Part shown: piece by piece, positions 3,056-60,726 of the stretch | How positions within the stretch are numbered: position 1 is the stretch's first letter | How the letters are laid out: each line of letters opens with the position of its first letter | Assembly (NCBI GenBank): GCA_965248755.1 | Contig: OZ252149.1 | Location: 1,280,001 to 1,344,000 of the forward strand | Length of the DNA: 64,000 nucleotides | Direction: 5' to 3' | From: Candidatus Latescibacterota bacterium | Lineage (GTDB): Bacteria; Latescibacterota; CBDEFO01 | Translations under genes and position numbers: made by a program | Notes under the pieces: generated by a model | Databases searched by the model: none | Told to the model about the DNA's origin: nothing | Seen by the model: the letters and a program-made list of their open reading frames with translations, nothing else

Positions 3056-4343
3056 CATACCGCTCCCCTTGACAGGGCGACAAATATTTTGCAAATTGGG
3101 GTTTGAGAAAGGAGGTCAAGGTGTCAAGCCCCGAAGTGAAAGATGGTAAGCGCTGGACGGCGACCCGTAAGGTAGAGGTGGTGTTGGCTGTTTTGAAAGG
3201 AGCGAATGTATCAGAGGTGTGTTGGAAGAATGGAATTAGCCAGTCACAGGCGTATGCTTGGCGTGATAGTTTCTTGGAAGGAGGCCAGGAGAGTCTGAAG
3301 TCTCGGCGTGGTCGCAAGGATGCGAAGGAGCGGGAGGTCAGCCGGTTGGAGCGTAAGGTAGGGCACTTAACCCTCCAGTTGGAGATACTCGAGGAGGTAG
3401 CCCGTCTAAAAAAAACGAAGCGGTTGCCTTGAGTGAGCGGTTTTTGGGTCGAGGCTATTCCCGGAAGGTGGTAGCTTTGGCTTTGGGTTTGCATCGTTCG
3501 ACTCTGTGTAGGCTTAGGTATAGAGGTGTCAGTTCTTCTGTCGAAGAGTCTGTGATAGATGAACAGCTTGCTTTTCGTATTCGAGGGATACTCGACCAAG
3601 AAGAGGCATTTGGTCACAGGCGGGTTTGGGCGCATCTTCGTTTCAAGGAAGGGGCATATGTCAACATCAAGAAGGTTCATAGGATAATGAAGCTTAAGGG
3701 GTGGCAGTGTAAGCTGTGGAATCCCCGATAGAATCAATCGGGGACCCCGGGAGAAAGGGGCCACAGGTTGCCCAGAAGCGTTCTGTGATGGATCGTCCTG
3801 ACAGTCTCTGGTCGGCTGACTTGACCAAGATCTATTGTGGGGAAGATGGTTGGTGTCCTCTTATTGCGGTGGTGGACAACGGGAGTCGGGAGGTTCCCCG
3901 GGTATCGTTTTAGTCGAAAAGGGAGGGCACTGGAGGCCACAGATGCCCTGGATCGGGCCGTGATCTCTCGATACACTTCCTAAGGAGGCTGTCCCCCAGG
4001 GTCTCACTTTGCGCTCTGACAACGGCTCCATCTTTTTGTCTCGGACCTATTTGGCAAGTACCGAATATTGGGACATTCGTCAAGAATATATTCCGAGCGG
4101 AAAGGCCGATTGGAACGGGGTCATAGAACGTTTTTTCAGGACCCTCAAGCAGGAGTGTGTGTGGCTTCACAATTTCAAGTCCTTTGAACAAGCTGAGAAG
4201 ATCATATCTCAGTGGATCGATAATTACAACAAGAACTGGCTTCATTCATCTCTGGGATACAAGACCCCGGAAGAGTGGAGAAAACAATTTTATCTGCTAC
4301 CCCAAGTTGCTTAATTGATGTCGCTTTTCTGGGGGGCAGTACA
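3056..4343 (+). mobile_element. Second IS3-family copy, orfB inactivated
   Basis: Colinear with 495-1760 with the same IRs; orfA 3103-3432 intact; orfB broken by a palindrome at 3722-3744 and further 1-nt insertions near 3899 and 3981; flanks AGTA / ATCT are not duplicated. Confidence 0.95.
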
Positions 4344-5079
4344 ATCTATAAATTACGTTTCTATTAGTAGTTCCATTTCAGCAAATCGTATTACCGATGA
4401 CTGGAAAATCCGATCGTGGACAAACGTACGGTATAGTAAACAAACCTTTGCGATAAACGACGAAAAGATATCCAGCATAGATAGGAATTATTATTTTTCG
4501 AGCACCATCGTAAAAAGTCTAACCAACCATTGGTCAGCCGGATTTTCCGGAACGGCTTCTTCTTCGACTTTCAGTAATACGGGTTTAGAAGTAGTAGTGG
4601 CGCCAGCATTCGAGTATAATCTTTTCCCATACTCCGAATCCACGCGAAGAGAGCTGCGTTTTCTATACCGCATTAATTACAATGCATTTCGCTATGTGGA
4701 GGAAACCATTTTTCAAAAAAGATCAGAGAAACTGTTTAGCGAGGAGTTGTCTGTGACCCTCAAAACCACACAGCTCTGGGGCTCAGCTACATTCAATTTA
4801 AAAGGCTCCCACTTCCTTCACGATTTCAGGAAGAATCGCTTGGTGCTATTTGGTGGATTGCAATTTCGCATGTTCAAGGGGTTTTCCTTGAATCTATATG
4901 GAAATATTTCAAGAATTCGAGATCAATTGTCCCTACGCAAGGGCGAGGCCAGCGCTGAAGAAGTTTTATTGCGACGTCGTGAACTTGCTACTTCTTACAG
5001 TTATTACACGTCAATCGGTCTAAGGTACACCTTCGGCTCAATTTATAGAAATATTGTTAACCCCCGTTTTGGAGGATAG
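4344..5079 (+). pseudogene. 5'-truncated outer-membrane beta-barrel protein
   Basis: Alternating aromatic beta-strand pattern ending IGLRYTFGSIYRNIVNPRFGG; frame begins at the IS right end. Confidence 0.65.
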
Positions 5080-5121
5080 CGATTGTTTAATTGAGCAATC
5101 ACTGAGTAGAAGTAACAAACT

Positions 5122-5436
5122 ATGAAACCTTTTAAGCTAGGACTAATCGGCTGTAGCATCGCGGCCAAGGATCTTCATTGGCCAGCTCTGAATAAATTGC
5201 AAGACAAATTCGAGATTACGGTTGTGTGCAACCGGAGCGAACCGAAGGCCGCAGAGTTTGCTCACATGGTGGGCGACCTTCCGCACGTGCTCGACTACAG
5301 AGAGCTCTTAGACCGTCAGGTAGGACTCTATAGATTCCGTAGCCCTTTTCCCAAAGCTCACAAAGTATTGAATAGATATTCCGATAAACAAGGATTTGGA
5401 GCACTGATTACACAGTATATTTTTAGTTCACGCTAA
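5122..5436 (+). pseudogene. N-terminal fragment of Gfo/Idh/MocA oxidoreductase
   Basis: KLGLIGCS...VVCNRS...DYRELLD, then similarity is lost after about 66 aa. Confidence 0.75.
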
Positions 5437-5487
5437 AGATAACCCAATATGTAGGCCCTACCACTTATTTTTCGGATCATCTAATAC

Positions 5488-5520
5488 ACAGCCCGTCTTT
5501 CTGACGGGCTGTCTTTTCTT
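5488..5520 (+). terminator. Probable intrinsic terminator
   Basis: ACAGCCCGTC-loop-GACGGGCTGT followed by CTTTTCTT. Confidence 0.6.
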
Positions 5521-5562
5521 GGGTCATTTTCGAACTGAGTTTTCTTAGCCCTGCAAAGTATA

Positions 5563-6672
5563 TCACAAAATACTTGTGTCGGGTAAAGGCACATGGTATC
5601 CACCTTTGATAAAGATAGAGAGAAGAGAGTCGAGAATCAAGACAGGGAAGTCAAAAAGTTGAGGATTGAGGTTTTCTGTGGGTTGGTGTTGGGTGGTTAT
5701 TTGTAAAGGGGTTTTGAAGTCTTTATAGCTATTATGTCTTTGGGTATTGAACAACCATTGATAGGTTTGGAGTTTCCGGCAGAGGTTGGCACGGTTGGTA
5801 ATCTTGACGGTGTCGTAGAATTCGTATTCGATTAGGCCGTGGGCGCGTTCTACATCGGATTGGTATGTAGTAGCCCCTGGTGGGATGCGTTTATGTTCTA
5901 TGCCTCTTTGTTGGATGAGGTCGGTAAAGAGGGTCTTTTTGAGGGCATCCTTTGTATTGACGAATTCTGTTCCGTTGTCGGTCTGGATCTTTCGTGGATA
6001 GACCTTGTGGTCTTCCAGGTGTTGGAGTAATGCTTCGGCCAAGATGCAGGAGTTGATCAGGCTCTGTTCGTCTGCCAGGCTTACGAAGAGGCCGCCTGTC
6101 TTGATATCTCTGGCAGTATACTCAAACATAGGGAGTTGGGCACCTGTTTTGTAGTGTTGTTTCAGGTAGTTGGGGATATCGCACAGATGTTTGACATCGA
6201 TCTGGATATATTCAAAAGGGCGTAGTTTCTTTTTCCACTGGCACACAAGTTTCTTTCTCCTCCATTTTCGCCTGCGTTTCTTTATGAGATTGTGTTTTTT
6301 CCAGATAGCATAGGCAGTCTGTTTGGAGGGGATTTGATCAGTTGGAACATTTTGTTTTTGGAGAAAGCCCAATAGATAGGGATATCCCAAAGAAGGATGG
6401 GTCTGTCGGAACTTTACGATGAGCTTTCTGATCTCCTCCGGTAACAAACAGTGAGGGTTTATGGGTGCTTTCGTATGATTTTCTAGACTCTTCAAGGATC
6501 GGTCTTCAAGATAACGTTTCAGCCATTTTCTTATACTCTTGCGTGTTGTATTAAAAGCCCTTGCAGCATACGAGACACCGTATTGTTGAGCAGTCTGAAC
6601 CATCTTGATACGAAGATCAACAGGATTACGATTAAGAACAAGAACATCACTATAAGTGATAGCATTCTCCAT
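5563..6672 (-). CDS. DDE transposase (HTH plus integrase core)
   Basis: IQIDVKHL, IQTDNGTEF, QSDVERAHG; GGAGG before ATG 6672; stop codon lies in the target repeat. Confidence 0.9.
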   Translation of the reverse strand: MENAITYSDVLVLNRNPVDLRIKMVQTAQQYGVSYAARAFNTTRKSIRKWLKRYLEDRSLKSLENHTKAPINPHCLLPEEIRKLIVKFRQTHPSLGYPYLLGFLQKQNVPTDQIPSKQTAYAIWKKHNLIKKRRRKWRRKKLVCQWKKKLRPFEYIQIDVKHLCDIPNYLKQHYKTGAQLPMFEYTARDIKTGGLFVSLADEQSLINSCILAEALLQHLEDHKVYPRKIQTDNGTEFVNTKDALKKTLFTDLIQQRGIEHKRIPPGATTYQSDVERAHGLIEYEFYDTVKITNRANLCRKLQTYQWLFNTQRHNSYKDFKTPLQITTQHQPTENLNPQLFDFPVLILDSLLSIFIKGGYHVPLPDTSIL

Positions 6673-6757
6673 GGTATCTACCCTCCTTTTTTCAGTCCTC
6701 ACCTAAATATAGACAAAATTATCCCATAAGGGTGGATACCATGTGTCTTTACTCTTC
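5577..6757 (-). mobile_element. IS481/IS1202-like insertion sequence with long target duplication
   Basis: IR cores TAAAGGCACATGGTATCCACC / GGTGGATACCATGTGTCTTTA; direct repeat TATCACAAAATACTTG at 5561-5576 and 6758-6773; one end starts TGT. Confidence 0.8.
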
Positions 6758-6884
6758 TATCACAAAATACTTGACTGTTGCTTGTGATAGTGGTATTTTT
6801 ATCTGGAACAAATCAGCATTAGAACTACCGAATACCAGAAAGCTCATTCTACCAGGTACGATAACTCAGATGAAACCGGCAAAT

Positions 6885-7406: not shown

Positions 7407-7489
7407 ACTGTTAATCCCTGTAATTAAAACAGTTACAGGGATTAATCATTTCTTAATTCGGCTTATTTTTCACCGTATTTCTACTATTT

Positions 7490-8343
7490 TTCTACTAAAC
7501 GATCCGAAAACCCTTGTGTCAAGCCGTTCCGCTGCCTCTTTGTGTGCTTCCGGCATGAGATGCCCACATCGGTCAAATGTGATCTGGATGGAAGAGTGCC
7601 CTAACTGACTCTGAATGTACTTGGGACTTTCCCTTTGGGTGATCAATAGGCTGGCGTAAGTATGACGCAGATCGTGGAACCGGATTGCCGGATGCCCGCA
7701 TCCTTCAAATACCTGTGGAACTCCCGCTTTCTTACTGTATCCGGATCAAGAGGTGTTCCATCCTCATGGCAGAACACCAGGTCTAGATCCTGGTAGGCCG
7801 GGCCCCAATATCAGCTTCTCCTCGTTCTGACGTGCCCGGTGCGCCCTAAGCGAGTCCATTAGGGTAGGAGACAGGTTGATCGCCCTTCTGGAGGTAGCTG
7901 ACTTCGGTTCGACTAAACTCTTCCTGTATAGTGCCTCTCTGACGAAGTACTGCTCTCTGTTCCAGTCGATGTTACTCCACTTCATAGCTAATAATTCTCC
8001 TCGACGCATGCAGGTCATAACAGCAGTGAGGAACAGCGCATACCAGTTCTGTGGCACGTGATTCAGGAAGATATGGATTTCCTCCACCGTCATAAAATCC
8101 ATCTCGTAGTGGGAAACTTTGGGTACCTCGATGTACAGTGCCGGACTCTCCCGAAGATAACCCCATCTTACGGCGTGCTTTAACATTTCCTTGAGTGGAA
8201 CCAGCGTGTTCTTGATCGGCTGCGGCGCTAACTTCCCTCTCTTTTTCTGGGAAACATATTGTTGGACGTCCTCCGGTGTAATCGCTGTTAGCTCGTACCT
8301 TCCGAAGAACGGTTTAAGGTGCCGCTTGATGTTGCTCTTGTAG
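7490..8343 (-). pseudogene. Phage/ICE-type tyrosine integrase, degenerate
   Basis: TCMRRGELLAMKW, RFHDLRHTYASLL, QLGHSSIQITFDRCGH (catalytic Tyr position is Cys); frameshifts; N-terminus missing; ends approximate. Confidence 0.85.
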
Positions 8344-8478
8344 GAACGGTGTGCCGATTCCGACCGCGTTGCATGCTGTGCTGACGAAGTTGCCATCTTT
8401 CAAGATGTCACATAGAACCTGTTGCAGATCAGGCGTTAGCTTCGTCTTTCGACCAACCTTCTTTGAATTCTTATTCAT
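8340..8478 (-). pseudogene. Fragment of phage HTH / terminase small subunit-like gene
   Basis: MNKNSKKVGRKTKLTPDLQQVLCDILKDGNFVSTACNAVGIG with GGAGG RBS, fused into the integrase relic. Confidence 0.45.
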
Positions 8479-22312: not shown

Positions 22313-22422
22313 TCCCCGATTGATTCTATCAGGGATTGGTTGTTTGTAAAGAGACTCGTCATTCAACTTCGGTGCGCTATCCGATCTATCCTAACCTTCC
22401 CCCGCCATCTGGATAATCGACG

Positions 22423-25574: not shown

Positions 25575-25690
25575 TCCAAGGGAGCCTTGCCAGTGAAGTC
25601 TGTCTATATCGGATGGAGACAGATGGATCCCCGATAGACTCAATCGGGGATGGATTTGTGCAGACGAGTAAGCTGGACTTGATGAGATAG
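25575..25690 (+). pseudogene. Second FlgD/T9SS-like C-terminal tail relic, carrying a palindrome insertion
   Basis: SLASEVCLYRMETDG[insert]FVQTSKLDLMR* aligns with the relic at 10900-11000. Confidence 0.6.
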
Positions 25691-25884: not shown

Positions 25885-26192
25885 TACCTTACTCTCTTGA
25901 CAGAGCGACAAATATGTTGCAAATTGGGGTTTGAGGCTTGTCCCCGAGTGATGCTATCGGGGAAAGGAGATCAACTTGTCAAGCCCCGAAGTGAAAGATG
26001 GTAAGCGCTGGACTGGGACCTGTAAGGAAGAGGTGGTGTTGGCTCTTTTCAAAGGAGCAGATGTATCAGAGGTGTGTTGGAAGAATGGAATTAGGCAGTC
26101 GCAGGCGTATGCTTGGCGTGATAGTTTCTTTAGAAGGAGGCCAGGAGAGTCTGAAGTCTCGGCGTGGTCGCAAGGATCCGAGGGAGCGGGAG
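25885..26192 (+). mobile_element. 5' remnant of the same IS3-family element
   Basis: TTGACAGAGCGACAAATAT left end and frameshifted orfA; palindrome inserted at 25941-25963. Confidence 0.85.
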
Positions 26193-26774: not shown

Positions 26775-27701
26775 ATGACGCGAGAGGAAATGAAATTCCA
26801 CCTACAGGGCCCCATGGCAACCGTTCCGACCCCCTTCGACGATCAGTACGAGATCGACTACGGTCTGATGTACGAGATGACCCAGTGGTGGGTTGAGCAG
26901 GGCCTTGTAGCAGGCAAGGTGCCTATCAAAGTGGTGGCTGCGATGGGCGAGGGTCCGTCGCTTCGTGACGATGAGTGGCCTTACCTGCTGAGAACCGTCG
27001 TCAACGCGGCCAACGGCAAGGCATCTGTCCTCTGCGGCATCCAGCACAAGGACACAGTGCGGTCAATAGAAGATGCCAAGCGGGCGCAGGATATGGGAGC
27101 AGTAGGATTGCAGATTCCGCTCCCGGTATTTAATCATCCGACGCAGGACGATTTGTACCGCTACTTCGCGGCTATCTCCGATGCTGTGGACATCGGCATT
27201 ATGCTCTACAATACCTGGTGGTACGGCTGTGAGAGCATCACGACCGAGACGGTTTTGCGCATGAAGGACATTGAGAACTTGGTCGCAGTGAAGTGGACGG
27301 TTCCGGAGCCGATGGTATATGAGGACATGGCGAAGTTCTCCGACCACTATAACGTAATCTGTAACAGCAGCCGGCCGGTGGACAACCATAAGCTGGGAGG
27401 CCGCGGCTACATCAATTGGACGTCTGAGATCTATCCTCCGCACGATCTGAAGATCTGGGAACTATTGGAGGCGAAGCAGTACGATGAGGCGGGTGCGATG
27501 TATCAGAGGGTGAAATCTGCCTTGGAAGACTTCGCTAACACCTGCACCAGTTCAGGCGGACAGTCCCGGATGAAGAAGGCGCTGACGAAGGTAATGGGGC
27601 GTCCGATGGGTGATCCGCGACCGCCCTCGATGCCGCTGAGCGACGACGAGGTGGCAAGACTCCGCCAAATTTTGATAGGGTTCGGCTGGCCTGTTCCCTG
27701 A
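26775..27701 (+). CDS. DapA/NanA-family class I aldolase, copy 1
   Basis: TVPTPFD, AAMGEG, IMLYN, VAVKW, MGDPRPP. Confidence 0.88.
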   Translation: MTREEMKFHLQGPMATVPTPFDDQYEIDYGLMYEMTQWWVEQGLVAGKVPIKVVAAMGEGPSLRDDEWPYLLRTVVNAANGKASVLCGIQHKDTVRSIEDAKRAQDMGAVGLQIPLPVFNHPTQDDLYRYFAAISDAVDIGIMLYNTWWYGCESITTETVLRMKDIENLVAVKWTVPEPMVYEDMAKFSDHYNVICNSSRPVDNHKLGGRGYINWTSEIYPPHDLKIWELLEAKQYDEAGAMYQRVKSALEDFANTCTSSGGQSRMKKALTKVMGRPMGDPRPPSMPLSDDEVARLRQILIGFGWPVP

Positions 27702-27930
27702 AGCAAAGGACATTGTCCAGAGAAAAATAAAACCGCAGAGCACTCACAAAAGCGATCCCGGCTGTGAGATTTGCCAGTGCCAAGCCGGTAGAGAGGAGGT
27801 GCTGGTGGCATAGTCAATCTTTTTGATATCCTGTTTGTTGTGGATAGGCTCTAGGATTTGACGAAGATGGCATGTCTGAAAGAGTAGTCCAGGTTTTAAC
27901 GTTTTCAAATATGATAAGGAGAAGGTACTC

Positions 27931-29640: not shown

Positions 29641-29741
29641 GGGGGAACCTGGGGTACGTGATGACCCCAGGGAGTTTTTCAGCTATCAGCATAGTGGGGC
29701 GGTGCGCACAAAGCACCTACGACAACAGACAAGGAGAAAAC

Positions 29742-35874: not shown

Positions 35875-37500
35875 CCGACATTCCCCATATCACATTCATG
35901 AGGGATTATATTTCGATACATTCTTGTTTCTGAATTAATATTACCACTTTTACATTTTTCAACAAGTACTTTTTTCAATTAAAATAGTATTTTCCTCTGA
36001 ATTATCACTTTCTTTGTGTTTAAATCCTCCAATTAGAGACACCTCTCCATCGACTCACAAAAAAATGTGGCAGTTTAAACAGAATAACATCGCAATCGTT
36101 CAATCCGGGATAATATTTCGGCAAATAACCTCTTGTCTATCCCAACCTCAGCCATTTGAAACGTAATATATCCGCTGTGTCTGACAATCTTCGCTCCGAT
36201 TTTGATAAATTTCACGAGGAGGCTGCGTAGTGACCAGTGTTTGATTTTCTTCGGAAGAACAAAACGTCGCAGGAAGTTGCCCAAGTTGTAAGCCAGAACA
36301 AACAGCCAGAGCCTCACCTGATTGGAGACGAAACGCTTGCATGAGAGTCGGGTCCAGTTCAGAGCATACTTGCCCTCCTTAATCCACTGCTCAGCTCTGC
36401 CACGGCCATTGTAGAAGTGTACCACGCCTTCTGGCTTGGCGCTCATGTTGGTCACGATAAATCCCACTCTTGGGAATAACTCCCCTTGGTGCCATTCAAC
36501 CTTGGCGACCACTCGCCTCGATTGATCCCAACTGGCCGCTTTATATTGAAATTCATATAACGATACAATCGGTTTCCTCGGCGGTCGTCCAACTGGCCGA
36601 GTCAGCAGGTATCGTATCTTTTCATAGAGTATCTCATTTGCGGGAAGCCGAATGGCATACAAATAGCCGTTTCCCTCCAGATAATCATAAATCTCAGGCT
36701 TTGCGAATGCAGCATCGCCTCGAAAGTATTTCCTATTCTTCTTGCTCTCGTATCTCTTGACGATCGGTTCCAGAACTTCCTTCCAACGATCAGCACTGTG
36801 AACATTACCAGAGCGAAGTAGGACTCCTTCACAATCCCCGAACTGATTGAAGCAGAACACTGGATGAAAACAGGTACATCCGAAATGACCGTTGTAAGCT
36901 GATCCTTCCTGCTGGCCATGTACCGGACTCTCCGAACTGTCCATGTCCAGAATGATTCGTTGATGCTGTGTTTTACTCATCGCTTTTTGAACCCACTTGC
37001 CATTGATATCTGACAAGTTTCTGAGATTGTCATGCTGAGTCAGTATATCAGTTTCAAAACGTCCTATCGTGTTGGAGCTGGCAGCTTGCCTGCCTTTGTC
37101 CTTCTTTCCGGTAATCGCTCGCATGACGGGATCAACGGATAATCGCTCGGCGTCATTTACATCTTCATATCCTGCAAGACGGCTGTATATCGATTGACGC
37201 AGGAGAGTAGATATATCATGTTGGATATTACGGCCTGTGCGTTTATCGGTAAAAACCGCTGATACCGAATCAAATAATCCCAGTGCGTAATCAAGGTCAC
37301 GATACGCAAGAAGTCCACCGTTTGATGTCACCTTTGCACCATGAAATTCAAGCTTTATTCCTCCATCAAAACCTACTTTGATTCTTTCACCCTCTGGATG
37401 ATCAATATTTATCCGCCATTTATGAGTCTTATTTATTGTAATATAACATGTTCTGGCGACTTTGACAACCATTTTTCGGGTCTAATATGGCGAATGGGGG
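35875..37500 (-). mobile_element. IS1380-family insertion sequence
   Basis: IRs CCGACATTCCCCATAT / ATATGGCGAATGGGGG; 5-bp target duplication GTTGA at 35870-35874 and 37501-37505. Confidence 0.92.
36075..37472 (-). CDS. IS1380-family transposase
   Basis: VTSNGGLL, AGYEDVNDA, LDMDSS, GQQEGSAYNGHF, RGDAAF, YNGRGRAEQWIKEGK; start codon uncertain. Confidence 0.92.
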   Translation of the reverse strand: MVVKVARTCYITINKTHKWRINIDHPEGERIKVGFDGGIKLEFHGAKVTSNGGLLAYRDLDYALGLFDSVSAVFTDKRTGRNIQHDISTLLRQSIYSRLAGYEDVNDAERLSVDPVMRAITGKKDKGRQAASSNTIGRFETDILTQHDNLRNLSDINGKWVQKAMSKTQHQRIILDMDSSESPVHGQQEGSAYNGHFGCTCFHPVFCFNQFGDCEGVLLRSGNVHSADRWKEVLEPIVKRYESKKNRKYFRGDAAFAKPEIYDYLEGNGYLYAIRLPANEILYEKIRYLLTRPVGRPPRKPIVSLYEFQYKAASWDQSRRVVAKVEWHQGELFPRVGFIVTNMSAKPEGVVHFYNGRGRAEQWIKEGKYALNWTRLSCKRFVSNQVRLWLFVLAYNLGNFLRRFVLPKKIKHWSLRSLLVKFIKIGAKIVRHSGYITFQMAEVGIDKRLFAEILSRIERLRCYSV

Positions 37501-39629: not shown

Positions 39630-41471
39630 GTGAAGAGACACGCCCTCTTGTTCATATCCCTGCAGATCAGCAGGGCTGCCCTGTCTCCCCCCATTAAATC
39701 TATCGGGCGTTACTGTCTTCTGTCTGCTTTAATCGTGCTTGCAGGTTGCGCCAGTCCTGCCAAAAAACACTACCGAGCCGGAAGTGAATACCATTCCAGA
39801 GGTCTTTTGGACGAAGCCATATCCGAATACCGGCAGGCTCTCGACATACAGCCCGAATACGCCAGAGCGCAGTTCCATCTGGCAAATGCCTACTCAGATA
39901 AGGGTCTCCTGAACGAGGCTGTATCGGAGTATAAGAAGGTACTTAAGAGGTATCCCGGATATGCAGAAGCCCACTATAACCTCGGGCTGGTATATGCCTT
40001 AAAGGGCCTACTGGACGAAGCTATCAAAGAGTACGAAAGGGCGCTGTGGATATATCCGGATTTCGTGGAAGCTCACTACGGCCTTGGAGAGGTTTACAGA
40101 CAGAAGGGACAACTAGACCGAGCCGAAGCAGGATACAGAAGGGCACTGAGGCTCTACCCAGGTTTTGCTGAAGCTCACCACGGCCTTGGAGAGGTTTTTA
40201 GAAAGAAAGGATGGTCTGACCGTGCTATTTCAGAATACCAGACCGCCATCGGCATACGTCCCAGCTACGAAGAAGCGCACTATGGCCTTGCGTTAGTGTT
40301 CGCAGACAAGGGACTTCTGAAAGAATCCATCGCGAGATATCAAAGGGTGCTAGAGCTGGATCCCAATTTCGTCCAGGCTTACCTCCAACTTGGAAACGCC
40401 TACAAGAAAGAGGGACTCCTGGATCGGGCTACAGATAGCTATAGAAAAGCAATAGACCTTTATCCTGATTACGCTGAAGCCCACAGGGAATTAGCTGATG
40501 CCTACAGACGAAATGGGATGGCCAACGAGGCACTTGAAGAATATAGGATCTACCGGGAGAAAGAGCTCCTTTACAGAGCCAGACCGCACAACAGCTTGGC
40601 TCTTTCCTACGCCAACAACGGCCTTATGGATGAAGCTATAAAGGAATGGAAAGAAGCATTAGAAATATATCCCGGCTACGCCGAAGTCCATAACAACCTT
40701 GGAAACGCTTATCTGCAGAGGGGTACAATCGAGGAAGCTATAAGAGAATACAAAAACGCCATAAGGATCGAGCCGAGCCTCGCCTTAACGCACAGCAATC
40801 TCGGAAGCGCATACTCCCAGAAGGGGTTGTTGGACGAGGCAATAGTAGCATGGAAGGAAGCAGTAGAGATTGAACCTAACTACGCCGGAGCCCACTATAA
40901 CCTTGGAAACGCCTACTCCCAAAAGGGGATGATCAACGATGCTATAGAGGAATACAGAAAAACTGTGGAGATAGATCCAAAACAGGTGCTGGCACACAAC
41001 AACTTAGGGGTAAAATACTATTACAAGGCCCGATACGATGAGGCTATATCGGAATTCCAGAAAGCCCTATCTATTGACTCCAGCTATGTAAACGCCCAGT
41101 CTAACATAGGGGACATATATAAACACAGAGGAATGTACAACGTTGCCGTAGCTGAGTTTCAAAAAGCCCTGAAGATGAATCCCCACTACGGCTACGCTTA
41201 TGGCAGATTGGCCTCCATCTACTACATCCAGGGTCTATACGAACAGGCCCAGTCAGCCCTAGAGGAGGCAGAAAAGTTCCAGGACGATCCCTGGGCATCC
41301 TACAGCATCGGGTGCTACTACTCCCTCAAACGCGACCTACAGACGTCCCTTATGTGGATCAAACGGGCAATTGATCTTGGGCTTAAAGACTTCGAATGGA
41401 TGAAGCACGATAAGGACTTAGACTTCATAAGAGAGGAACCTGAATTTAAGGAGATGATCGCATCAGAGTAA
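39630..41471 (+). CDS. TPR-repeat lipoprotein
   Basis: Lipobox VLAGC; about 15 34-aa TPR units; C-terminal YSIGCYYSL...DKDLDFIR cap. Confidence 0.92.
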   Translation: MKRHALLFISLQISRAALSPPIKSIGRYCLLSALIVLAGCASPAKKHYRAGSEYHSRGLLDEAISEYRQALDIQPEYARAQFHLANAYSDKGLLNEAVSEYKKVLKRYPGYAEAHYNLGLVYALKGLLDEAIKEYERALWIYPDFVEAHYGLGEVYRQKGQLDRAEAGYRRALRLYPGFAEAHHGLGEVFRKKGWSDRAISEYQTAIGIRPSYEEAHYGLALVFADKGLLKESIARYQRVLELDPNFVQAYLQLGNAYKKEGLLDRATDSYRKAIDLYPDYAEAHRELADAYRRNGMANEALEEYRIYREKELLYRARPHNSLALSYANNGLMDEAIKEWKEALEIYPGYAEVHNNLGNAYLQRGTIEEAIREYKNAIRIEPSLALTHSNLGSAYSQKGLLDEAIVAWKEAVEIEPNYAGAHYNLGNAYSQKGMINDAIEEYRKTVEIDPKQVLAHNNLGVKYYYKARYDEAISEFQKALSIDSSYVNAQSNIGDIYKHRGMYNVAVAEFQKALKMNPHYGYAYGRLASIYYIQGLYEQAQSALEEAEKFQDDPWASYSIGCYYSLKRDLQTSLMWIKRAIDLGLKDFEWMKHDKDLDFIREEPEFKEMIASE

Positions 41472-46784: not shown

Positions 46785-46882
46785 GGCGAACTATTAGTTA
46801 ACCAAAATAACTTTCAGTTATCATAACTTAGATAATGATTGAAACCAATTTCCAATTTATTGTTATACCCTTTGAAAGTCAA
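46785..46882 (-). promoter_or_regulatory. attI-like site with Pc-like promoter, copy A
   Basis: TTGACT-N17-TAAATT (46882-46854) upstream of GGTTAAC-TAATA-GTTCGCC (L box, 5 bp, R box). Confidence 0.6.
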
Positions 46883-47283
46883 CCATATTAATTCATGTCT
46901 AATTTTGAAACAAATAGTGCAAACTCCGATATTTTGGTACTGCTTTCCTTGACAGAGCGACAAGAATTTTGCAGTAGGGATACCCCTCCCATGTCTGCTC
47001 AAAATAGCATTCCTTCAAATGTTTATTGACAACTTTCTGTTTTATGCTTAAGCTGTTGGCACAGCAATGGAAGGAAACATCTATTACAAGAAGACCAATA
47101 TGGAGGTTGAAATATGACTTATGACTTGCTTGTCAAAGGCGGGATGCTCGTCGACCCTGCACTGAAGCTCCACGCGAAAAAGGACGTGGCTTTTACAAAT
47201 TCCGTCGTTTCCACTGTCGGTGATGATCTGCCTAAGACGGAGGCGCGCGAGGTGCTGGACGCAAGTGGTCGAATCTCACGCCA
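46792..47283. repeat. About 490-bp direct repeat, copy A (copy B at 50312-50805)
   Basis: attI-like region, IS3 left-end remnant (46936-46973), TTGACA-N17-TAAGCT promoter and first about 55 codons of the amidohydrolase. Confidence 0.9.
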
Positions 47284-50304: not shown

Positions 50305-50403
50305 GCCCAACCAAAAATTAACCAAGTTGGTTTCCAGTTACCGTAACTTAGAGAATGATTCATAACTAATCTGCAATTTACTGTTAAAACCCTTGAAAGT
50401 CAA
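50305..50403 (-). promoter_or_regulatory. attI-like site with Pc-like promoter, copy B
   Basis: TTGACT-N17-TAAATT (50403-50375) upstream of GGTTAAT-TTTTG-GTTGGGC. Confidence 0.6.
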
Positions 50404-50634
50404 CCATATTATTTCATGTCTAATTCTGAAACAAATAGTGTAAGCTCCGATATTTTGGTACTGCCCTCCTTGACAGAGCGACAAGAATTTTGCAGTAGGG
50501 ATACCCCTCCCATGTCTGCTCAAAATAGCATTCCCTCAAATTTTTATTGACAACTTTCTGTTTTATGCTTAAGCTGTTGGCACAGCAATGGAAGGAAACA
50601 TCCGTTACAAGAAGACGAATATGGAGGTTGAAAT

Positions 50635-51774
50635 ATGACTTATGACTTGCTTGTCAAAGGCGGGACGCTCGTAGACCCTGCACTGAAGCTCCACGCGAAA
50701 AAGGACGTGGCTTTTACAAGTGGCGTCGTTTCCGCTGTCGGTGATGATCTGCCTAAGACGGAGGCGCGTGAGGTGCTGGACGCAAGTGGCCGCATCGTCA
50801 CGCCAGGGATGATCGATTTGCACGTCCATGTGTTCTACGGCGTCAGCCACTTCGGCATCGAGCCTGACCCTACCTGTCTGGCTAAGGGAGCAACCACAGT
50901 GGTCGACGCAGGTTCTGCGGGAGCGGACACCTTTCCGGGCTTTCGCAAGTATGTGATTGACGTGAGCGGGACGCGCATCCTGGCGCAGCTCAACATTGCG
51001 TCACAGGGGATGCTGACCCTCGAAATCGGAGAGTTCGAAATCCCTGAGTACGCAAATGTGGACAAAGCGTGCCAGATGATAGAAAAGCACCGCGATGTGA
51101 TTCTGGGTGTGAAGGTTCGACTCACAAAGAACCTCATCGTCAGCGAGAGGTCAGGGATGTCGCCCCTGCACCGAGCGCGCGAGGCCGCAGACGCGGCCGG
51201 ATTGCCCATCATGGTTCATCCGCAGGATGCCTGGTGCGGTTCGATTGACGATATTCTAGCCGTTATGCGCAAGCGAGACATCCTGACTCACTGCTTCCAC
51301 GGTATGGCGTGCGGCATCCTGGACGATCATGGTCAAGTGCGAAAATCGGTGCGTGAGGCGATGGAGCGCGGCGTCGTTTTCGATGTTGGGCACGGGGCAG
51401 GATCGTTCAACTGGAAGGTTGCTGAACGAGCGATGGAGCAGGGAGTCGAGCCTCAAACTATCTCATCGGACCTGCACATTTACAACATAGACGGTCCCGT
51501 CTACGACCTGGCGACGGTGGTTACCAAGTTTCTTCGTCTGGGCTTAACGCTCGACAACGCGATCGCGAAGGTTACGGCTGTTCCTGCTCAGACAATTTTG
51601 ATGCCAGATAAAATCGGTACACTCTCGGTCGGAGCATGGGGCGATGCGGTCGTCTTCGAATTACGTTCAGGAGAATTCCAGTTGCAGGACACGGACGGCG
51701 ACATGCGCATCGGCAAGCAGAAGCTCGTTCCCGTGGCGGTCGTCAAGGGCGGGCGGGTCTATCGGCAGAGCTGA
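50635..51774 (+). CDS. Dihydroorotase-like amidohydrolase/deacetylase family metallohydrolase
   Basis: PGMIDLHVH, GATTVVDAGSAG, GVKVR, MVH, LTHCFHG, FDVGHGAGSF, ISSDLH. Confidence 0.9.
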   Translation: MTYDLLVKGGTLVDPALKLHAKKDVAFTSGVVSAVGDDLPKTEAREVLDASGRIVTPGMIDLHVHVFYGVSHFGIEPDPTCLAKGATTVVDAGSAGADTFPGFRKYVIDVSGTRILAQLNIASQGMLTLEIGEFEIPEYANVDKACQMIEKHRDVILGVKVRLTKNLIVSERSGMSPLHRAREAADAAGLPIMVHPQDAWCGSIDDILAVMRKRDILTHCFHGMACGILDDHGQVRKSVREAMERGVVFDVGHGAGSFNWKVAERAMEQGVEPQTISSDLHIYNIDGPVYDLATVVTKFLRLGLTLDNAIAKVTAVPAQTILMPDKIGTLSVGAWGDAVVFELRSGEFQLQDTDGDMRIGKQKLVPVAVVKGGRVYRQS

Positions 51775-53711: not shown

Positions 53712-55019
<1,308 letters not shown>

Positions 55020-55185
55020 GTTGAACCCGTGCGTGGTGTGTCAGACTGTCTGAGACGCAAGCGGGTACACAACAATTGCTGCCCTACGGACTTCATTATC
55101 GGCATTCTATTGTCGTGGGTCAGTCCCCGATTGAATCTATCGGGACCTGTCTGACACGCAGATTTGGGGAAACGGAAGGAGACGC

Positions 55186-55397
55186 ATGGTCTACCTTCTG
55201 GGAATCGACGTTGGAACTACGGGCGTAAAGAGTATGCTGAGGAGTTGGTAAAGGTCGTGGATTCGACAGAGCCGATAGAGGAAAATGTCAGCACGTACAG
55301 GGATTTCTACTCGGTCTTCAGATCCCTCTATCCGGCCCTGAAAGACACATTCTCAGAAGTTTCAAAAGTTGTAAGCAAATATCGGAGGGAAGATTAA
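55186..55397 (+). pseudogene. FGGY-family (xylulokinase-like) kinase with large internal deletion
   Basis: MVYLLGIDVGTTGVK joined directly to the C-terminal ...EPIEENVSTYRDFYSVFRSLYPALKDTF. Confidence 0.75.
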
Positions 55398-55403
55398 GTT
55401 CGG

Positions 55404-56477
55404 ATGGAAAAGAGAACGCTCGGAAGGACAGGGCTAGAGATAACCTCAGTAGCCTTCGGCGCAGCGCGTCTGTCGGAGCATCTCGATGCGGCTGTGGACA
55501 CCGTAAAGAGCGCCCTGGATTTGGGGATCAACTTCATAGACACCGCCAGAAGCTATGGTGACAGCGAGGAGAAGGTCGGACACGGGATAAAGGGCAAAAA
55601 GAGAGAGGATTTCTACATAGCCACAAAGACTCAGCCTGTCGATTCTGATATGGCTCAGCGGGACATAGAAACGAGCCTTTCGATCTTAGGTCTAGACAAC
55701 GTAGATCTCTTCTACGTCCACGGGTGCAACGATCCCGAAAGATTTCACAATACGATGAGCCCGGGCGGAGTTTTAGAAGGGTGCCAGAAGGCAAGGGATA
55801 GAGGCTTAACCAGATATATAGGGGTAAGCTTCGATCATTTTCAGCCCATGCCACTGGATCGAATGAGAACCCTTATCGAGACGGATGAGTTCGATGTGAT
55901 ACAGGTTCCTTTCAACCTTGTGCGCACCGAGAGAGTCGATGAGGAGATCATACCGCTCGCCAAAAAGAAGAACATAGGGGTCTTTGTCAACTATCCGACC
56001 TACGAGGGACACCTTGCACAGGAATGGGGAGTCTTCAAAAAGATTTTGGGACCTTACGCAGACACGCCCGGACAGGCCGCTCTCCTCTACATACTTTCTC
56101 ACGACGGTGTCAGCGCGGTTCTTTCCGGGATGAGCACGCCCCAGATGGCAGAGGAGAATGTCGCCGTCGGACATATTATCGAAAAGCTGTCTTCTGCGGA
56201 GCGTCGGAACATCGTGGAGAAAGTCGAAGCCCTGGGACTGGGGCCGTGCAGGAGCTGTGCCCTTTGCCACCCCTATTCGAATGGCATTCCCGTTCAAAAG
56301 ATAATGTTCGGCTACGACTGCTACACGAGATTCGGGTATGAATGGGCTAAAGAAGAATATGAATCTTACAGAGAGCAGGTTGAATCGTGCGAAGACCTCA
56401 AAGCATGCGATGAGGTCTGCCCTTACAGTTTCGATGTCCTTAAAATGCTCAAAGATGTCTATGCAAACAGACAGTAG
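55404..56477 (+). CDS. Aldo/keto reductase with C-terminal Cys cluster
   Basis: LGRTGL, GINFIDTARSYG, IATKT, IGVS; CRSCALC ... CDEVCP. Confidence 0.9.
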   Translation: MEKRTLGRTGLEITSVAFGAARLSEHLDAAVDTVKSALDLGINFIDTARSYGDSEEKVGHGIKGKKREDFYIATKTQPVDSDMAQRDIETSLSILGLDNVDLFYVHGCNDPERFHNTMSPGGVLEGCQKARDRGLTRYIGVSFDHFQPMPLDRMRTLIETDEFDVIQVPFNLVRTERVDEEIIPLAKKKNIGVFVNYPTYEGHLAQEWGVFKKILGPYADTPGQAALLYILSHDGVSAVLSGMSTPQMAEENVAVGHIIEKLSSAERRNIVEKVEALGLGPCRSCALCHPYSNGIPVQKIMFGYDCYTRFGYEWAKEEYESYREQVESCEDLKACDEVCPYSFDVLKMLKDVYANRQ

Positions 56478-56599
56478 GTAGACCCGCGGGTCTGCTCTGC
56501 AATCTGGGCGAACCACTTTGTGGCTTGTAGCGACATCGCTCTGCACGCTGCTACTTGGATTCGCTCCTACACAGACTACAGGAAAGGAGAAGAACAACT

Positions 56600-57082
56600 A
56601 TGAAGATCACCGTCTTGTTCACGATTTTTGCCTTTGTTTTCACTGCGATGTTTTCTCTTGCCCACGCCCAGACGAAAGATGCCATAGCCATCCGCAAGGT
56701 ATTAGAAGACGAGATGATAGGATGGAAAAGAGGCGACATCGAGAAGATAACGGAGCACTATCAGCCTCACTTCACAGGATACGACGGGCTCGAAAAGGCT
56801 GATCCCAGGGAGTGGCGAATCCTGTTTAGCGACCTGGATGAATTCAAGGACTACCTCGAAGAGAGGTTCTCCAAGGTGGAATACGATCTCAAAAGGACCG
56901 CCACCAAAACTGAGGCCAGAAACAACAGAGCCTATGTAGTAACTCAGGAACAGGGCAAGACCACACACAAAGAGACAGAGATGACAAGGGAGTTCGATCA
57001 CTTTAACTTCTGGATGCTGGAAAAGGTGGAAAATGAATGGAAGATAACCGGATTTGTCTTCAAGTTCGCCGTGCCTGAATAG
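56600..57082 (+). CDS. Secreted NTF2/SnoaL-like protein
   Basis: Signal peptide ending AHA; WKRGDIE, LEKVENEWKITG. Confidence 0.7.
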   Translation: MKITVLFTIFAFVFTAMFSLAHAQTKDAIAIRKVLEDEMIGWKRGDIEKITEHYQPHFTGYDGLEKADPREWRILFSDLDEFKDYLEERFSKVEYDLKRTATKTEARNNRAYVVTQEQGKTTHKETEMTREFDHFNFWMLEKVENEWKITGFVFKFAVPE

Positions 57083-57329
57083 TTAGCTAGGTAAACAGTA
57101 GTCAGTAGCCCCCCGATTGAAGCTAACTGGGATAAACGTGGCCCCAATATCTCCTTTCTAAGTCATCATTGCGAGCCAAGCGAAAGGTTTGCGAAGCAAC
57201 TTCATATAGACTGCCTTGTCTACTGTTTGCTACTTACTATTCTGGATCTCTATTGTCACCTCCAGACCATTTTGACCTGAAACTTAAGAAAGGACACAGA
57301 GGCTTGCTCTCCCTGGAGGCCGGTAAGGT

Positions 57330-58202
57330 ATGATTTCCTACAGATGGGGTACCTTGCTTTTAGCTACCTTTGTATCCGCCACGATTCTGATTATTTCGCT
57401 ATTAGTATCTGGATGCAAAGACGACGAAAAGAGTAAATCCCAGGATCCCTTCACCCACGAACCGCTCGACAGAACCTTAATGCGGTTTACAGATAGTAAA
57501 GGAATGGTGGACTACGCCACTTTAAAAGTGGATTCGGAAGACCTCGAAACCTATATAGATCTGCTGCAAGGCTACAGCCCTGAAAAAGATCCGGATGCGT
57601 TCCCCACAAGAGATGACAGATTGGCTTACTGGATCAACGCATACAACGCCTTCGTCATCAAAGGAGTTGTGGACAACTATCCCACAGACAGCGTTCTTAG
57701 CATCAAGATGTTTAAAGGCTTCTTCTGGATGATCAAATTCAACGCAGGTGGCAACAAATACTCACTCAAGCAAATAGAGGACGACATAATAAGGGAAAAG
57801 TTCAAAGAGCCGAGGATACACTTTGCCTTAAACTGCGCCTCTCTGGGATGTCCGCGCCTTGAAACGAAAGCCTATCTTGCCCATAACCTGGAGGGTAGGC
57901 TCGAAGAATCGGCCCGGTACTTCATAAACGAGGAACACAATGTCAAGATAGATGCGGAGAACAAAATCGTGTACCTCTCCTCCATCTTCGACTGGTACGC
58001 AGATGACTTCAGGGACTGGTATAAAGAGAATTTCAACGTGGCGGATGCTCATATACTGGACTACATCAAGCTCTACATAGCAGACGACAAAAAAGAGAAG
58101 ATAGAATTTGCTAAAGACAACTACAAGATTAAATACTACAAATACGACTGGGGACTGAGTGACCTTAACAGAGGAGAGTCGTCACTCTCCTCTGTTAAGT
58201 AG
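57330..58202 (+). CDS. DUF547 lipoprotein
   Basis: VSGC lipobox; GMVDY, LAYWINAYNA, EPRIHFALNCASLGCP, LSSIFDWY, YDWGL. Confidence 0.88.
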   Translation: MISYRWGTLLLATFVSATILIISLLVSGCKDDEKSKSQDPFTHEPLDRTLMRFTDSKGMVDYATLKVDSEDLETYIDLLQGYSPEKDPDAFPTRDDRLAYWINAYNAFVIKGVVDNYPTDSVLSIKMFKGFFWMIKFNAGGNKYSLKQIEDDIIREKFKEPRIHFALNCASLGCPRLETKAYLAHNLEGRLEESARYFINEEHNVKIDAENKIVYLSSIFDWYADDFRDWYKENFNVADAHILDYIKLYIADDKKEKIEFAKDNYKIKYYKYDWGLSDLNRGESSLSSVK

Positions 58203-58418
58203 ACAGCAAGAAGGTAGGGGAGGATGCCCTGCAAGAACGTAGGGAGGATGCCCTGTATTGACTACGAGATTAGCTTCCCCCCGACCCCCGATAGAGTCAA
58301 TCGGGGGTGCTCGCAACGACGGTTTAGAGGATTCGTAATGACGTTGCCGGGCTTCGGCTTCAGTCATTGCAAGGGGTGGAACCCCGAAGCAATCTCACCT
58401 TTCTACTGTCTACTATGT

Positions 58419-59140
58419 TCAGTCGTCTGAGCCGCCTCTGAGTATGAGCAGGCGGATAAGGTGGATGACAGCCACAGCTGCTGACGCCAGATAGGTCAGC
58501 GCCGCGGCATTTAGGACTTTCCTGGCGGACTTTATTTCGTCCTGAGCCAGATATCCCTCCCCTGTGAGGATCTTTATGGCTCTGCTGCTGGCGTTAAATT
58601 CGACGGGCAAAGTCACAAAGTGAAACGCGACAGCCAGGGTAAACAAGGCTATGCCAAGGTCTATCAGGGGTTCATATCCGAAGAAGAAGCCTCCTATGAA
58701 CAAGGGCCCCATGCTAATTTAGATCCGAAGCCTACTACGGGCACTAAGCTGGTTCCTCAAAGACAGTGGGGCGTAGCCTGCAGCCGTAGCCTGCAGCGTG
58801 CTGGAGCGCGTGTCCTGTCTCGTGTGCGGCGATACCTATGGGCGGACACAGACCTTGAGGAATAGACGCCCTCCGAAAGCCGCATAACTCTGTCGCGCGG
58901 ATCGTAATGATCCGTCAACTGGCCATCTATCACCTCCACTGCCACATTGTGAAGGCCGTTGTGATCCAAAAGCCTTCTGGCCACCTGTGCGCCGGTCAGT
59001 CCACTCCTTGCGTAAACCTCACTGTACCTGGAGTATGAACTCTTTATCTTAGCCTGAGCGTAGAGGGTGAGGATTATGGCAGGGATCAAAAGGATGAAGG
59101 TGGGGTCCCAAAATAAGGGGAAGAAGAATAGAGGATATAT
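58419..59140 (-). pseudogene. YugP-like neutral zinc metallopeptidase, multiply frameshifted
   Basis: GLTGAQVAR, GQLTDHYDP, AAHETGHALQH, TLPVEFNAS, AAALTY spread over several frames. Confidence 0.88.
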
Positions 59141-59168
59141 GGATTTAACCCCCTGATTTTGAACTTCA

Positions 59169-60119
59169 CTATTCGAATTGTTCTTTTTGAGACAACCTGT
59201 AGCCGCGGACAAATTCAGAGGCGGTCATCTTCTTTTTACCGGCAGGTTGAACCTCCAAAAGCCGGAGAAAACCCTCTCCAGTGGCTACTACTATCCCATC
59301 CTTGGGATCAGATACTATAATCTCCCCCGGCTTACTTTTACATTCTCGCTCCTCACGAGCAGCCCTATGTATTTTAAGTTCCTTCTCCCTCCAGATCGTG
59401 AACGCTCCAGGGTACGGATTTGTTCCCCTTATAAGGTTCCTTATCGTCTCTGGGCCTTTATTCCAATCAATCCTGCCGTTTTCCTTCTTAATCTTAGGGG
59501 CTTTCGTCGCTCCCACTTTGTCCCCAATTGAGTCTATCGGGGATTGAGGGATACGTATAGCCATTCCTGACTCCAAGAGTTCTATAGTCTCCACGAGCAT
59601 ATCTGCGCCTTCGGCTTTCAGTCTGTCGTAAAGCTCTCCTGCTGTCTCGTCATTTCCTATTTCGACTTTCTCCTGTAGGATTATGTCCCCGGTGTCAACC
59701 TTTTCGTCTATTACGAATGTCGTAAGACCCGTCTCCTTTTCACCATTTATGATGGCCCAGTTTATGGGTGCCGCTCCTCTGTACTTGGGCAATAGAGACG
59801 CATGTAGGTTAAGCGAACACAATCGGGGTATCATCAGAACCGAAAGAGGCAGGATTCTAAAGGCTACGACTACAAAAAGATCGGGTCGAGCGTCGGAAAG
59901 GGCAGAGTGGAAATGGGAATCTTTGAGGCTTACAGGCTGCATTGTGGGGATATTGAGTCTCTGCGCTTCCACCTTAACCGGGGAAGGTGAAAGCTTCTGT
60001 CCTCTTCCTTTCGGAGTGTCTGGACGAGTCACAACACACACACAATCGTGCCTGCTCCCTGCAATCCTCCCAAGAGACGGAACGGCAAAATCGGGCGTCC
60101 CCATGAAGATCAATCTCAT
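59169..60119 (-). CDS. fmt: Methionyl-tRNA formyltransferase
   Basis: FMGTPDFA, VVTRPD..KGRG, NLHASLLPKYRGAAPI, DTGDII, NPYPGA. Confidence 0.97.
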   Translation of the reverse strand: MRLIFMGTPDFAVPSLGRIAGSRHDCVCVVTRPDTPKGRGQKLSPSPVKVEAQRLNIPTMQPVSLKDSHFHSALSDARPDLFVVVAFRILPLSVLMIPRLCSLNLHASLLPKYRGAAPINWAIINGEKETGLTTFVIDEKVDTGDIILQEKVEIGNDETAGELYDRLKAEGADMLVETIELLESGMAIRIPQSPIDSIGDKVGATKAPKIKKENGRIDWNKGPETIRNLIRGTNPYPGAFTIWREKELKIHRAAREERECKSKPGEIIVSDPKDGIVVATGEGFLRLLEVQPAGKKKMTASEFVRGYRLSQKEQFE

Positions 60120-60130
60120 ATTAAGACTGT

Positions 60131-60442
60131 CTATTCTTTAAGTTTTGATACCGCCGATCGAGAGACCTCTACTTTCACATTGTCGGCTATCCTCAGAACT
60201 AAGATATCATCTTTCTCATTGATTCCGACTATGGAACCGTGTATGCCTCCTGTAGTTACGACCTTGTCCCCTTTTCTCAAGTTCCTAATAAGCTCCTGAT
60301 GTTCTTTTTGTTTTCTGTGCTGAGGACGTATGATAAGGAAGTAGAAGATCAGAAAAATAACTATCAAAGGAAGAAAGCTGAGTATTCCCGCTCCACCGGA
60401 GTCTCCTCCCGGTAGCGTCATTGCGTAGACTTGGTCAATCAA
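60131..60442 (-). CDS. yajC: Preprotein translocase subunit YajC
   Basis: FYFLIIRPQ, GDKVVTTGGIHG; follows tgt. Confidence 0.95.
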   Translation of the reverse strand: MIDQVYAMTLPGGDSGGAGILSFLPLIVIFLIFYFLIIRPQHRKQKEHQELIRNLRKGDKVVTTGGIHGSIVGINEKDDILVLRIADNVKVEVSRSAVSKLKE

Positions 60443-60726
60443 GCGAACCTCCTGACTTTAATTATGGTTGGCACTGTCAACTGGATTTCGAAATCCGTCC
60501 CGCATCTGTCGGGCCAGTCCCCGATTGCTTCTATCGGGGACGCGTGTCTGCTCAGAAACTAAACTACGGACCGGGCTGCTCGGTCCCTGGGCTCTTTCTT
60601 AGGGTGCATGAGGTGGTGACATCAAAGCACGAAGTGCCCTTGCCCCTGCACTCGTAGAGGCGATCTTGCACCCTTTACCTTGTATGTCGTTAACTGCCTA
60701 CTAATTGGGGTGCTCCATCCAGAACT

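Follow-up and report, generated by a model that had tools for sequence, protein, structure and literature searches.

How does a hairpin of little more than 20 bases come to lie at many places in a bacterial chromosome, inside insertion sequences (IS) as well as between genes, and does it move? The question arises from a 64,000-nucleotide stretch of the genome of Candidatus Latescibacterota bacterium (assembly GCA_965248755.1, contig OZ252149.1, positions 1,280,001 to 1,344,000; hereafter the window), in which an earlier note, made from the letters alone, had described nine copies of a near-palindrome and proposed a minimal element gained at new sites. Ortholog comparison bears the proposal out. 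The source genome (G000; 4.54 Mb, one contig) was compared with G001 (~95% identical), the one genome of the same genus, over 2.8 Mb of its 4.6 Mb. Among 209 G000 sites with orthologous flanks in G001, 165 were shared, 23 were empty, 17 differed by nesting and four differed otherwise; the reverse comparison of 208 G001 sites gave 152 shared, 30 empty, 24 nesting and two other cases, with nested differences totaling 41 across both directions. Because the empty allele keeps the IS gene orfB intact, and because five of the seven CG-centred empty sites do not match the scar expected after loss of the hairpin, insertion and not loss is indicated, and the hairpin is a minimal non-coding mobile element gained at new sites. 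Neither an assembly artefact nor a set of always-filled sites, two readings that the note itself had set against mobility, accounts for the copies: an independent assembly and read contigs hold them, and orthologous sites without them exist. Only one of the ten window sites, that at 60518, is empty in G001, and contigs of sequencing runs X5 and X7 also leave this copy out, which is the kind of polymorphism that the note had suggested looking for in reads. At 22313 and 25628, further run contigs brought up no additional empty allele. Contigs of run X1, possibly the source sample, agree with 54144-58307 and 58279-61500 at every base. Among the runs listed as holding the element there is no RNA run.

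The mobile unit is a 23-base sequence with the consensus (T/C)CCCCGATAGANTCAATCGGGG(A/G). At up to two mismatches, the pattern given in the note hits eight places in the window and none in 100 shuffles, and two further decayed copies at ~39687 and ~57110 bring the total to ten, so that the repeat stands and the count of nine becomes eight close copies plus two decayed ones. Across the source genome, 348 sites lie within two mismatches of the 23-mer, evenly spread along the chromosome, and the shuffled genome has none within three; 554 sites lie within three mismatches of the 21-base core. In 493 independent contexts, the pair just outside the core is complementary in 370 (217 after shuffling), almost only as T..A or C..G, and pairs beyond it show no enrichment, which sets the unit at 23 bases. 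Flank information runs out within 4-5 bases, so the hairpin does not form the end of a longer IS or miniature inverted-repeat transposable element (MITE), an objection that the note had anticipated. The strand folds into a stem of 8-9 bp with a loop of 5-7 nt, and the one fixed A/A (or T/T) asymmetry noticed earlier sits at the loop rather than as a bulge in a long stem; it is kept at 526 of the 554 sites, only four being symmetric. In 37 of 530 contexts both members of one stem pair are altered, 35 of these being paired where 5.9 were expected; this is a CpG position that may reflect one subfamily, and the other stem pairs show no excess of compensatory change. The feet of the stem are variable, CTAC occurring at 14 and 16 of 493 on the two sides. 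Most copies are singlets, a neighbour within 150 bases being present for 59 of 554, and the orientation counts are 151/152 and 78/112 on the two replichores. Rfam models gave no match in the window at the gathering score.

Other small hairpins accompany the element. A shorter sister hairpin, CCCCCGATTTAATCGGGGG, occupies ~16 sites in G000 (for example C1:58721, 142825, and 1047506), is present in G001 too, and is at times nested in the main element; several unrelated mini-hairpin families also occur in G000 and related genomes. A cluster of tail-bearing copies with a CATT variant and an ACAGG tail (G000:C1:2125003-2132134 and G001:C8:740024-752633) sits at the 5′ ends of paralogous genes, and the G001 cluster holds two head-to-tail 27-base doublets.

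The filled and empty orthologous alleles, whose alignment the note had proposed, define how the element joins its target. Of 53 empty sites, 38 are simple (+18 to +27 bases) and 15 are complex (+10 or +29 to +58) and were not parsed; 30 of the simple cases passed a flank filter, eight being dropped for flank mismatches or duplicates. Net gains were +18 (two sites), +19 (10), +20 (eight), +21 (three), +24 (one), +26 (three), and +27 (11), and none of the 53 sites gave +22, +23, or +25. The variation previously reported (+20, +21, +27) is real and not random: the junctions are bimodal, with modes 7-8 bases apart at +19/+20, where three to four target bases are replaced, and at +27. In the +19 mode four bases give way to the 23-mer; they are CG-centred in 7 of 10 cases (CG frequency 5.3%, p=1e-7), and in 9 of 10 both flanks are preserved exactly or to within one base. 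In the +20 mode, C often occupies the first right-flank position, which holds T in the empty allele, as though a single base of the tail had been carried along. The extra bases of the filtered +27 events are an exact target duplicate in two, a near duplicate in one, a CAAG/CAGG tail in five, CAGC in one, and complex in one. Where one copy is nested in another, what is replaced is in most cases the TAGA, intact or decayed, of the copy that receives it, and +12 differences at nested copies would fit slippage. Paralogous sites (n=21) gave +19 (two), +20 (seven), +21 (three), +23 (one), +26 (one), and +27 (seven), and seven of their nine +19/+20 events fall at NCG. An exact 4-base direct repeat surrounds the 23-mer in 20 of the 493 independent contexts against 2.6 after shuffling (maximum seven), and an exact 5-base repeat in only one; a stricter set gave 15 of 205 (1.5 shuffled) and the metagenome loci described below 3 of 33 (0.3 expected; shuffle maximum three).

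The target preference revealed by the junctions is strand-symmetric and, on either strand, approximates to YYNR^NCG. Read outward, YNRR stands at 74 and 63 of 205 feet on the two sides (36% and 31%) against a background of 12.6%. The two feet are mutually independent (Fisher p=0.88), and priming at one end only was rejected, since the feet show no anticorrelation. One 1.26-kb IS holds seven distinct junction sites, four of which abut NCG; those at window positions 780, 1527, and 1578 recur, and copies stand in for 609, 746/747, and 975 IS bases between recurring CG sites. The copy at 22313 is a breakpoint copy of this kind, which we term a bridged deletion. Empty sites were no more hairpin-prone than control intergenic DNA (30 versus 110, p=0.32), and hairpin-structured targets were thus not indicated.

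Within the window (Table 1), the local comparisons drawn in the earlier note fared unevenly. The +20 difference between IS copies 1 and 2 stands, but not as a control from an independent event: the 15 filled IS copies carry an identical hairpin and form one clade (support 100/99) against 54 empty IS copies, and the copy at 3722 is a single old insertion later spread by the IS. Copies seem also to spread passively in this way within IS elements and other repeats. The filled IS left end at 25941, with its empty paralogues, was read correctly, gaining 27 bases that include a CAAG tail and no duplication. At 25628 the +27 gain was borne out, and its extra bases can equally be read as 23 bases plus a duplicated TGGA. 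The comparison of 55124 with 55040 is a weak control, resting on ~19 similar bases, and the G001 orthologue is filled. That the hairpin lands in IS and other repeats holds; landing in genes is a minority outcome, and the contrast drawn with repetitive extragenic palindromes (REPs) falls away, as the hairpin is strongly depleted from genes too, with 60 of 554 sites in open reading frame (ORF) cores that cover 68% of the genome and ~89% of copies outside them. Seven of eight polymorphic events in ORF cores keep the frame, and the fmt copy at 59521 gives ~7 extra linker residues relative to two PDB homologues.

Table 1. Hairpin copies and target sites in the window (positions in the 64,000-nucleotide stretch)
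Feature	Position	Strand	Remark
Hairpin in IS3-family orfB, net +20	3722..3744	+	ORF shortened from 287 aa (copy 1) to 100 aa
Empty target TCGT in intact IS3 copy 1	1161..1164	+	
Hot-spot target TTAG^CCGG TTGG, IS copy 1	777..788	+	Junction of at least three independent events elsewhere in genome
Hot-spot target CCGA^TTGG, IS copy 1	1523..1530	+	Right junction of 746/747- and 975-base bridged deletions
Hairpin at IS3 relic breakpoint	22313..22335	-	IS homology stops at 22312, hairpin foot; common to G001
Hairpin 25628-25650 between two TGGA copies	25624..25654	+	4-base target duplication, net +27
Hairpin 25941-25963 + CAAG tail, IS3 left end	25937..25963	-	Net +27 without duplication; 76 empty paralogues
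Decayed copy	39687..39709	-	G001 version nearer consensus
Intergenic hairpin copy	55124..55146	-	Common to G001
Decayed intergenic copy	57110..57132	-	Common to G001
C..G variant nested in older copy	58279..58307	+	Left CCCCGA remnant; G001 retains 12 more right-side bases of older copy
Hairpin in-frame in linker of methionyl-tRNA formyltransferase (fmt, 59169-60119 minus)	59521..59543	-	
Copy in loop of REP-like hairpin	60518..60540	-	Empty in G001 and X5/X7 run contigs; net about +20/21

The window also holds assorted mobile-element parts (500-6750, 7764-8396, 36075-37472, 46843-47142, and 50364-50663). These include IS3 copies (~70 IS3-family elements in the genome), a second integrase-core transposase inside 25-base inverted repeats, a tyrosine integrase fragment, an IS1380-type (DDE_Tnp_1_4) transposase, and two 300-base repeats with an IS left-end motif. 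At 26775-28857 lies a tandem duplicate of a 308-aa DHDPS-family gene (DNA ~93% identical), and a third DHDPS-family gene lies at 29658-30674.

Among relatives the element is narrowly distributed. Beside the 554 sites in G000, G001 has 374 matches within one mismatch and 29 other relatives have none, which completes the count that the note had called for, and a looser pattern applied to 168 genomes of the phylum singles out only G000, G001, and a third genome, G011. The latter has a different mini-hairpin family, CCCGATTAAAGATTCGGG and variants (loci L345-L359; 174 pattern matches against 16 for a control), located inside GTCATTCCC-type repeats. The best TGT matches among 80 loci, at 62-63%, are to Latescibacterota-like metagenome-assembled genomes, in keeping with a host that is probably of that kind; the label is tentative, since one of those genomes is not among the 168. 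Exact copies of the hairpin itself occur in 120 metagenome loci ranging from 36 to 68% GC. Three of these were looked up by their proteins (3/5 found): proteins from two carry the name Deltaproteobacteria bacterium, as does a cluster member for the third. On metagenome contigs L226, L232, and L233, from a Deltaproteobacteria host of 42% GC, the identical hairpin lies inside long mosaic intergenic repeats. The core at up to one mismatch is present in 13 of 401 and 13 of 251 genomes from the phyla of Desulfuromonadaceae and Nitrospiria records, with no control matches, or 26 of 652 sampled genomes in these two phyla together. The loop varies across hosts, and a pattern fixing the CCCGA/TCGGG stem with GA..CA matches all 28 of the 28 carrier genomes searched. 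Viral contigs gave no exact match; loose matches at up to two mismatches (6 of 118) were not shown to exceed chance, and no relative of the small GIY-YIG nuclease Ssn was found there.

We searched for an enzyme that could move the hairpin. No mobilising gene lies in the window, in agreement with the note. Profile searches of G000, which is 98% complete, gave no match to Y1_Tnp (PF01797), REP_Tyr_transpos (NF047646), DUF559, or Ku, and no small GIY-YIG protein, the sole GIY-YIG protein being of 608 aa. The hairpin brackets neither of its two reverse transcriptase genes, for which the distances to the closest copies are 0.6 kb and 2.4 kb; the genes are found at G000:C1:3731484-3732284 (266 aa, retron-like by our reading, truncated by an IS3 copy) and 3677787-3679310 (507 aa). 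The stretch examined for a four-helix-bundle gene with a stop held no hairpin. When 823 G000 ORFs near copies were clustered with the ORFs of 80 metagenome loci, no recurrent nuclease family emerged; the clusters were judged by eye, without a Pfam scan, and the whole G000 proteome was not scanned against family libraries. None of the 120 metagenome loci encodes an Ssn or REP-associated tyrosine transposase (RAYT) relative. In G001, a 107-aa Ssn-like GIY-YIG ORF (L360:1415-1765; G001:C4) lies between inverted GTCATTCCC-type hairpins of its own and is missing at the orthologous G000 site (~976055-976062), G000 keeping at least four remnants of 152 bases, and a RAYT-like gene (L369:1370-2085; G001:C8) is flanked by GTAG-type REPs, with another such REP inside the ORF and the right REP interrupted by the hairpin. 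The suggested search for a RAYT, GIY-YIG, or reverse transcriptase gene flanked by the hairpin itself came up empty in G000, as it did for RAYT and GIY-YIG genes in G001. Carrier genomes in the other phyla have a small GIY-YIG ORF in 18 of 26 cases and none in eight (no negative-control genomes were included), and none of these ORFs adjoins a copy among the copies listed.

Our best account of these junctions, which we put at somewhat below even odds, is that a trans-acting enzyme nicks both target strands and that each 3′ end is given the same hairpin sequence. The candidate enzyme would nick each strand at a loose YYNR^NCG site, and the hairpin sequence would be added at each freed 3′ end, by extension or by joining. 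Since the hairpin is nearly its own reverse complement, the two added strands would pair. Nick spacing would determine the outcome class. Nicks facing each other across one CG-centred 4-mer would lead to its replacement (+19, or +20 with a single tail base included); with the opposite stagger, four bases would be duplicated or the donor tail would fill that slot (+27 in either case); and nicks at distant sites would delete the intervening DNA. Hairpin writing of this sort resembles twin prime editing, and a bolder version, which we think unlikely, is a natural analogue of it that copies one palindromic template onto both 3′ ends at YYNR^NCG-like sites. If true, insertions, duplications of four bases, and deletions of kilobase size would all come from one reaction, and both the palindromic form of the smallest bacterial mobile elements and their passage across phyla would be explained.

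Several points weigh against two-strand nicking and hairpin addition. No enzyme that could make the nicks was found. Independent ends predict a +23 class, which is absent among 53 orthologous sites and seen once among 21 paralogous ones, and a two-copy heteroduplex should sometimes give symmetric loops, which only 4 of 554 sites have. The duplicated 4-mers (TTGA, CAAG, TCAA) differ from the lost ones (NCGN), and the two junction modes may be two pathways. One of the 20 apparent duplications (G000 1129551) is a +19 event between two similar feet, and bridged deletions can also result when two copies that inserted separately recombine. Most feet have no YNRR match, which makes for a loose target consensus, and with two genomes some single events lack polarity.

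Other explanations deal with parts of this evidence. An HUH transposase of the Y1 kind (RAYT or IS200/IS605), acting in trans, could cut and paste a 27-base single-stranded unit made of the hairpin and a CARG tail, the remaining junctions being secondary repair. Such a unit would account for the kept loop asymmetry (526 of 554 sites), the CARG tail without duplication at five of the 10 filtered +27 orthologous events, the two head-to-tail doublets in G001, and a tail found on one side in 20 and on the other in 5 of 341 copies from 26 other genomes (13 of the 20 from two genomes), and G001 does have one Y1-like gene. That gene, however, has its own GTAG-type REPs, one of which the hairpin merely interrupts, and G000 has no Y1 gene despite its completeness. 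The tail insertions share no target tetranucleotide (CCAT, GCAT, CAGA, CCTT), copies are singlets, 59 of 554 having a near neighbour, and neither target duplications nor 4-base losses are products of HUH strand transfer as in IS608, so that the 4-base duplications and CG-centred losses seen here fit it poorly. We judge this explanation unlikely, and the earlier hint at a Y1/RAYT enzyme was not upheld, given the lack of PF01797 or NF047646 matches in G000 and junctions unlike those of HUH transfer. No dedicated enzyme would be needed if replication switched templates, or if a short single strand were captured at breaks through 1-4 bases of microhomology to the ends and tail. This is consistent with the lack of a candidate gene in G000 or beside copies, with the resemblance of preferred targets (TCGA-like 4-mers, TCAA/TTGA, CAAG) to the hairpin's ends, arm, and tail, and with the several unrelated mini-hairpin families in these genomes. 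In five of seven CG-centred events, however, the outer target base is overwritten and not used as microhomology, Ku is missing from G000, and hairpins are no commoner at empty targets than in control intergenic DNA (p=0.32, 30 versus 110). The same core and loop asymmetry are moreover kept across phyla in a patchy distribution (13/401 and 13/251; no control matches), which suggests recognition by a protein, and an enzyme-free origin is in our view not a likely one.

A nuclease other than a transposase could also recognise the hairpin. Ssn genes are flanked by 20- to 50-nt hairpins, and single-stranded DNA is cut a few bases upstream of them (PMC11893778); an Ssn-type small GIY-YIG single-strand nuclease might therefore release the hairpin or open targets, with host repair finishing the event. 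The 107-aa ORF in G001 and the small GIY-YIG ORFs in 18 of the 26 carriers in other phyla (again without negative-control genomes) fit such a role, but the G001 gene is flanked by the different GTCATTCCC-type pair, the only GIY-YIG protein in G000 is the 608-aa one, no small GIY-YIG ORF adjoins a copy among the copies listed, none of the 120 metagenome loci has an Ssn or RAYT relative, and eight of 26 carriers, some with 15-18 copies, have no small GIY-YIG (these being incomplete metagenome-assembled genomes). We consider an Ssn-type nuclease quite unlikely. The remaining explanation dispenses with movement: an old static repeat whose presence and absence come from hairpin loss, IS hitchhiking, or assembly error. 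It could draw on the shared state of 165 of 209 orthologous sites and nine of 10 in the window, on the single event behind the 15 IS-borne copies, and on the +12 differences that slippage would fit. It is very improbable and already largely refuted by the 493 independent flank contexts, by empty alleles that include intact ORFs and mismatch loss scars, and by the presence of the element in an independent assembly and in read contigs.

To our knowledge, how bacterial repeats of 20-30 bases move has been unexplained since the small dispersed repeats (SDRs) were described. Because the junction spectrum and target rule are now defined, the mechanism can be tested, and dozens of before/after sites with a target consensus and a junction spectrum offer a yardstick for any candidate enzyme. 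Hairpin insertion inactivates IS transposase genes and gives housekeeping proteins, Fmt for one, additional loops, and a hairpin-writing nickase, if real, would be of interest as genome-editing chemistry.

Among known systems, the GTAG/CGTC-tagged REPs and REPIN/RAYT families are short palindromes, the CGTC REPs being described as apparently without a dedicated transposase (PMC3733652, PMC3116915 for the families; PMC3733652 for the transposase). The hairpin is like REPs in size, copy number, a mostly intergenic position, and occasional in-frame presence in genes. It differs in having no fixed GTAG or CGTC tag at the stem foot, in a polymorphic unit of single copies rather than inverted doublets, and in the lack of a RAYT in G000, the G001 Y1 gene carrying other REPs; REP-like repeats serve as targets for its insertion, and it is not itself one of them. 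Like the Ssn-associated NTS/SRM hairpins (20-50 nt), it is oriented, has hundreds of copies, and has conserved bases beside the stem; for those hairpins, the sections considered show cleavage and not insertion (PMC11893778). Unlike the Ssn systems, it has no ssn gene in G000 and none was found flanked by it. RPE-1, a Rickettsia palindromic element (RPE), is a longer palindrome than the hairpin. RPEs are mentioned in PMC3733652, and the in-frame insertion into a housekeeping protein, here fmt, is a shared trait, whereas ~89% of hairpin copies lie outside ORF cores. A MITE or IS end would have a longer conserved body and a single fixed length of target duplication; the hairpin lacks such a body, and only a minority of its contexts (20 of 493) show a duplication.

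The hairpin works like the SDRs of Nostoc in size, nesting, and mobility. As described by Elhai et al. 2008 (Genome Res 18:1484), these are said to be dispersed non-coding sequences of 21-27 bases found inside other repeats and themselves, and they reportedly vary between relatives, with a mobiliser that was not known. The hairpin has the same features: it is 23 bases long (27 with tail), dispersed, and non-coding, present or absent in close relatives, and nested in itself, in IS, and in REP-like repeats. Its sequence and its hosts differ, the latter being non-cyanobacterial and of at least three phyla. SDR5 is reported to insert precisely within the HIP1 octamer (PMC4390886); the hairpin has instead a loose CG-centred target, a 4-base duplication/tail class, and long bridged deletions. 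No description of this hairpin family was found in the literature searched, and the original SDR paper (Elhai 2008), outside that search, may bear on how new the junction rule is. The kind of element is already known; what is new here is its junction spectrum and its target rule.

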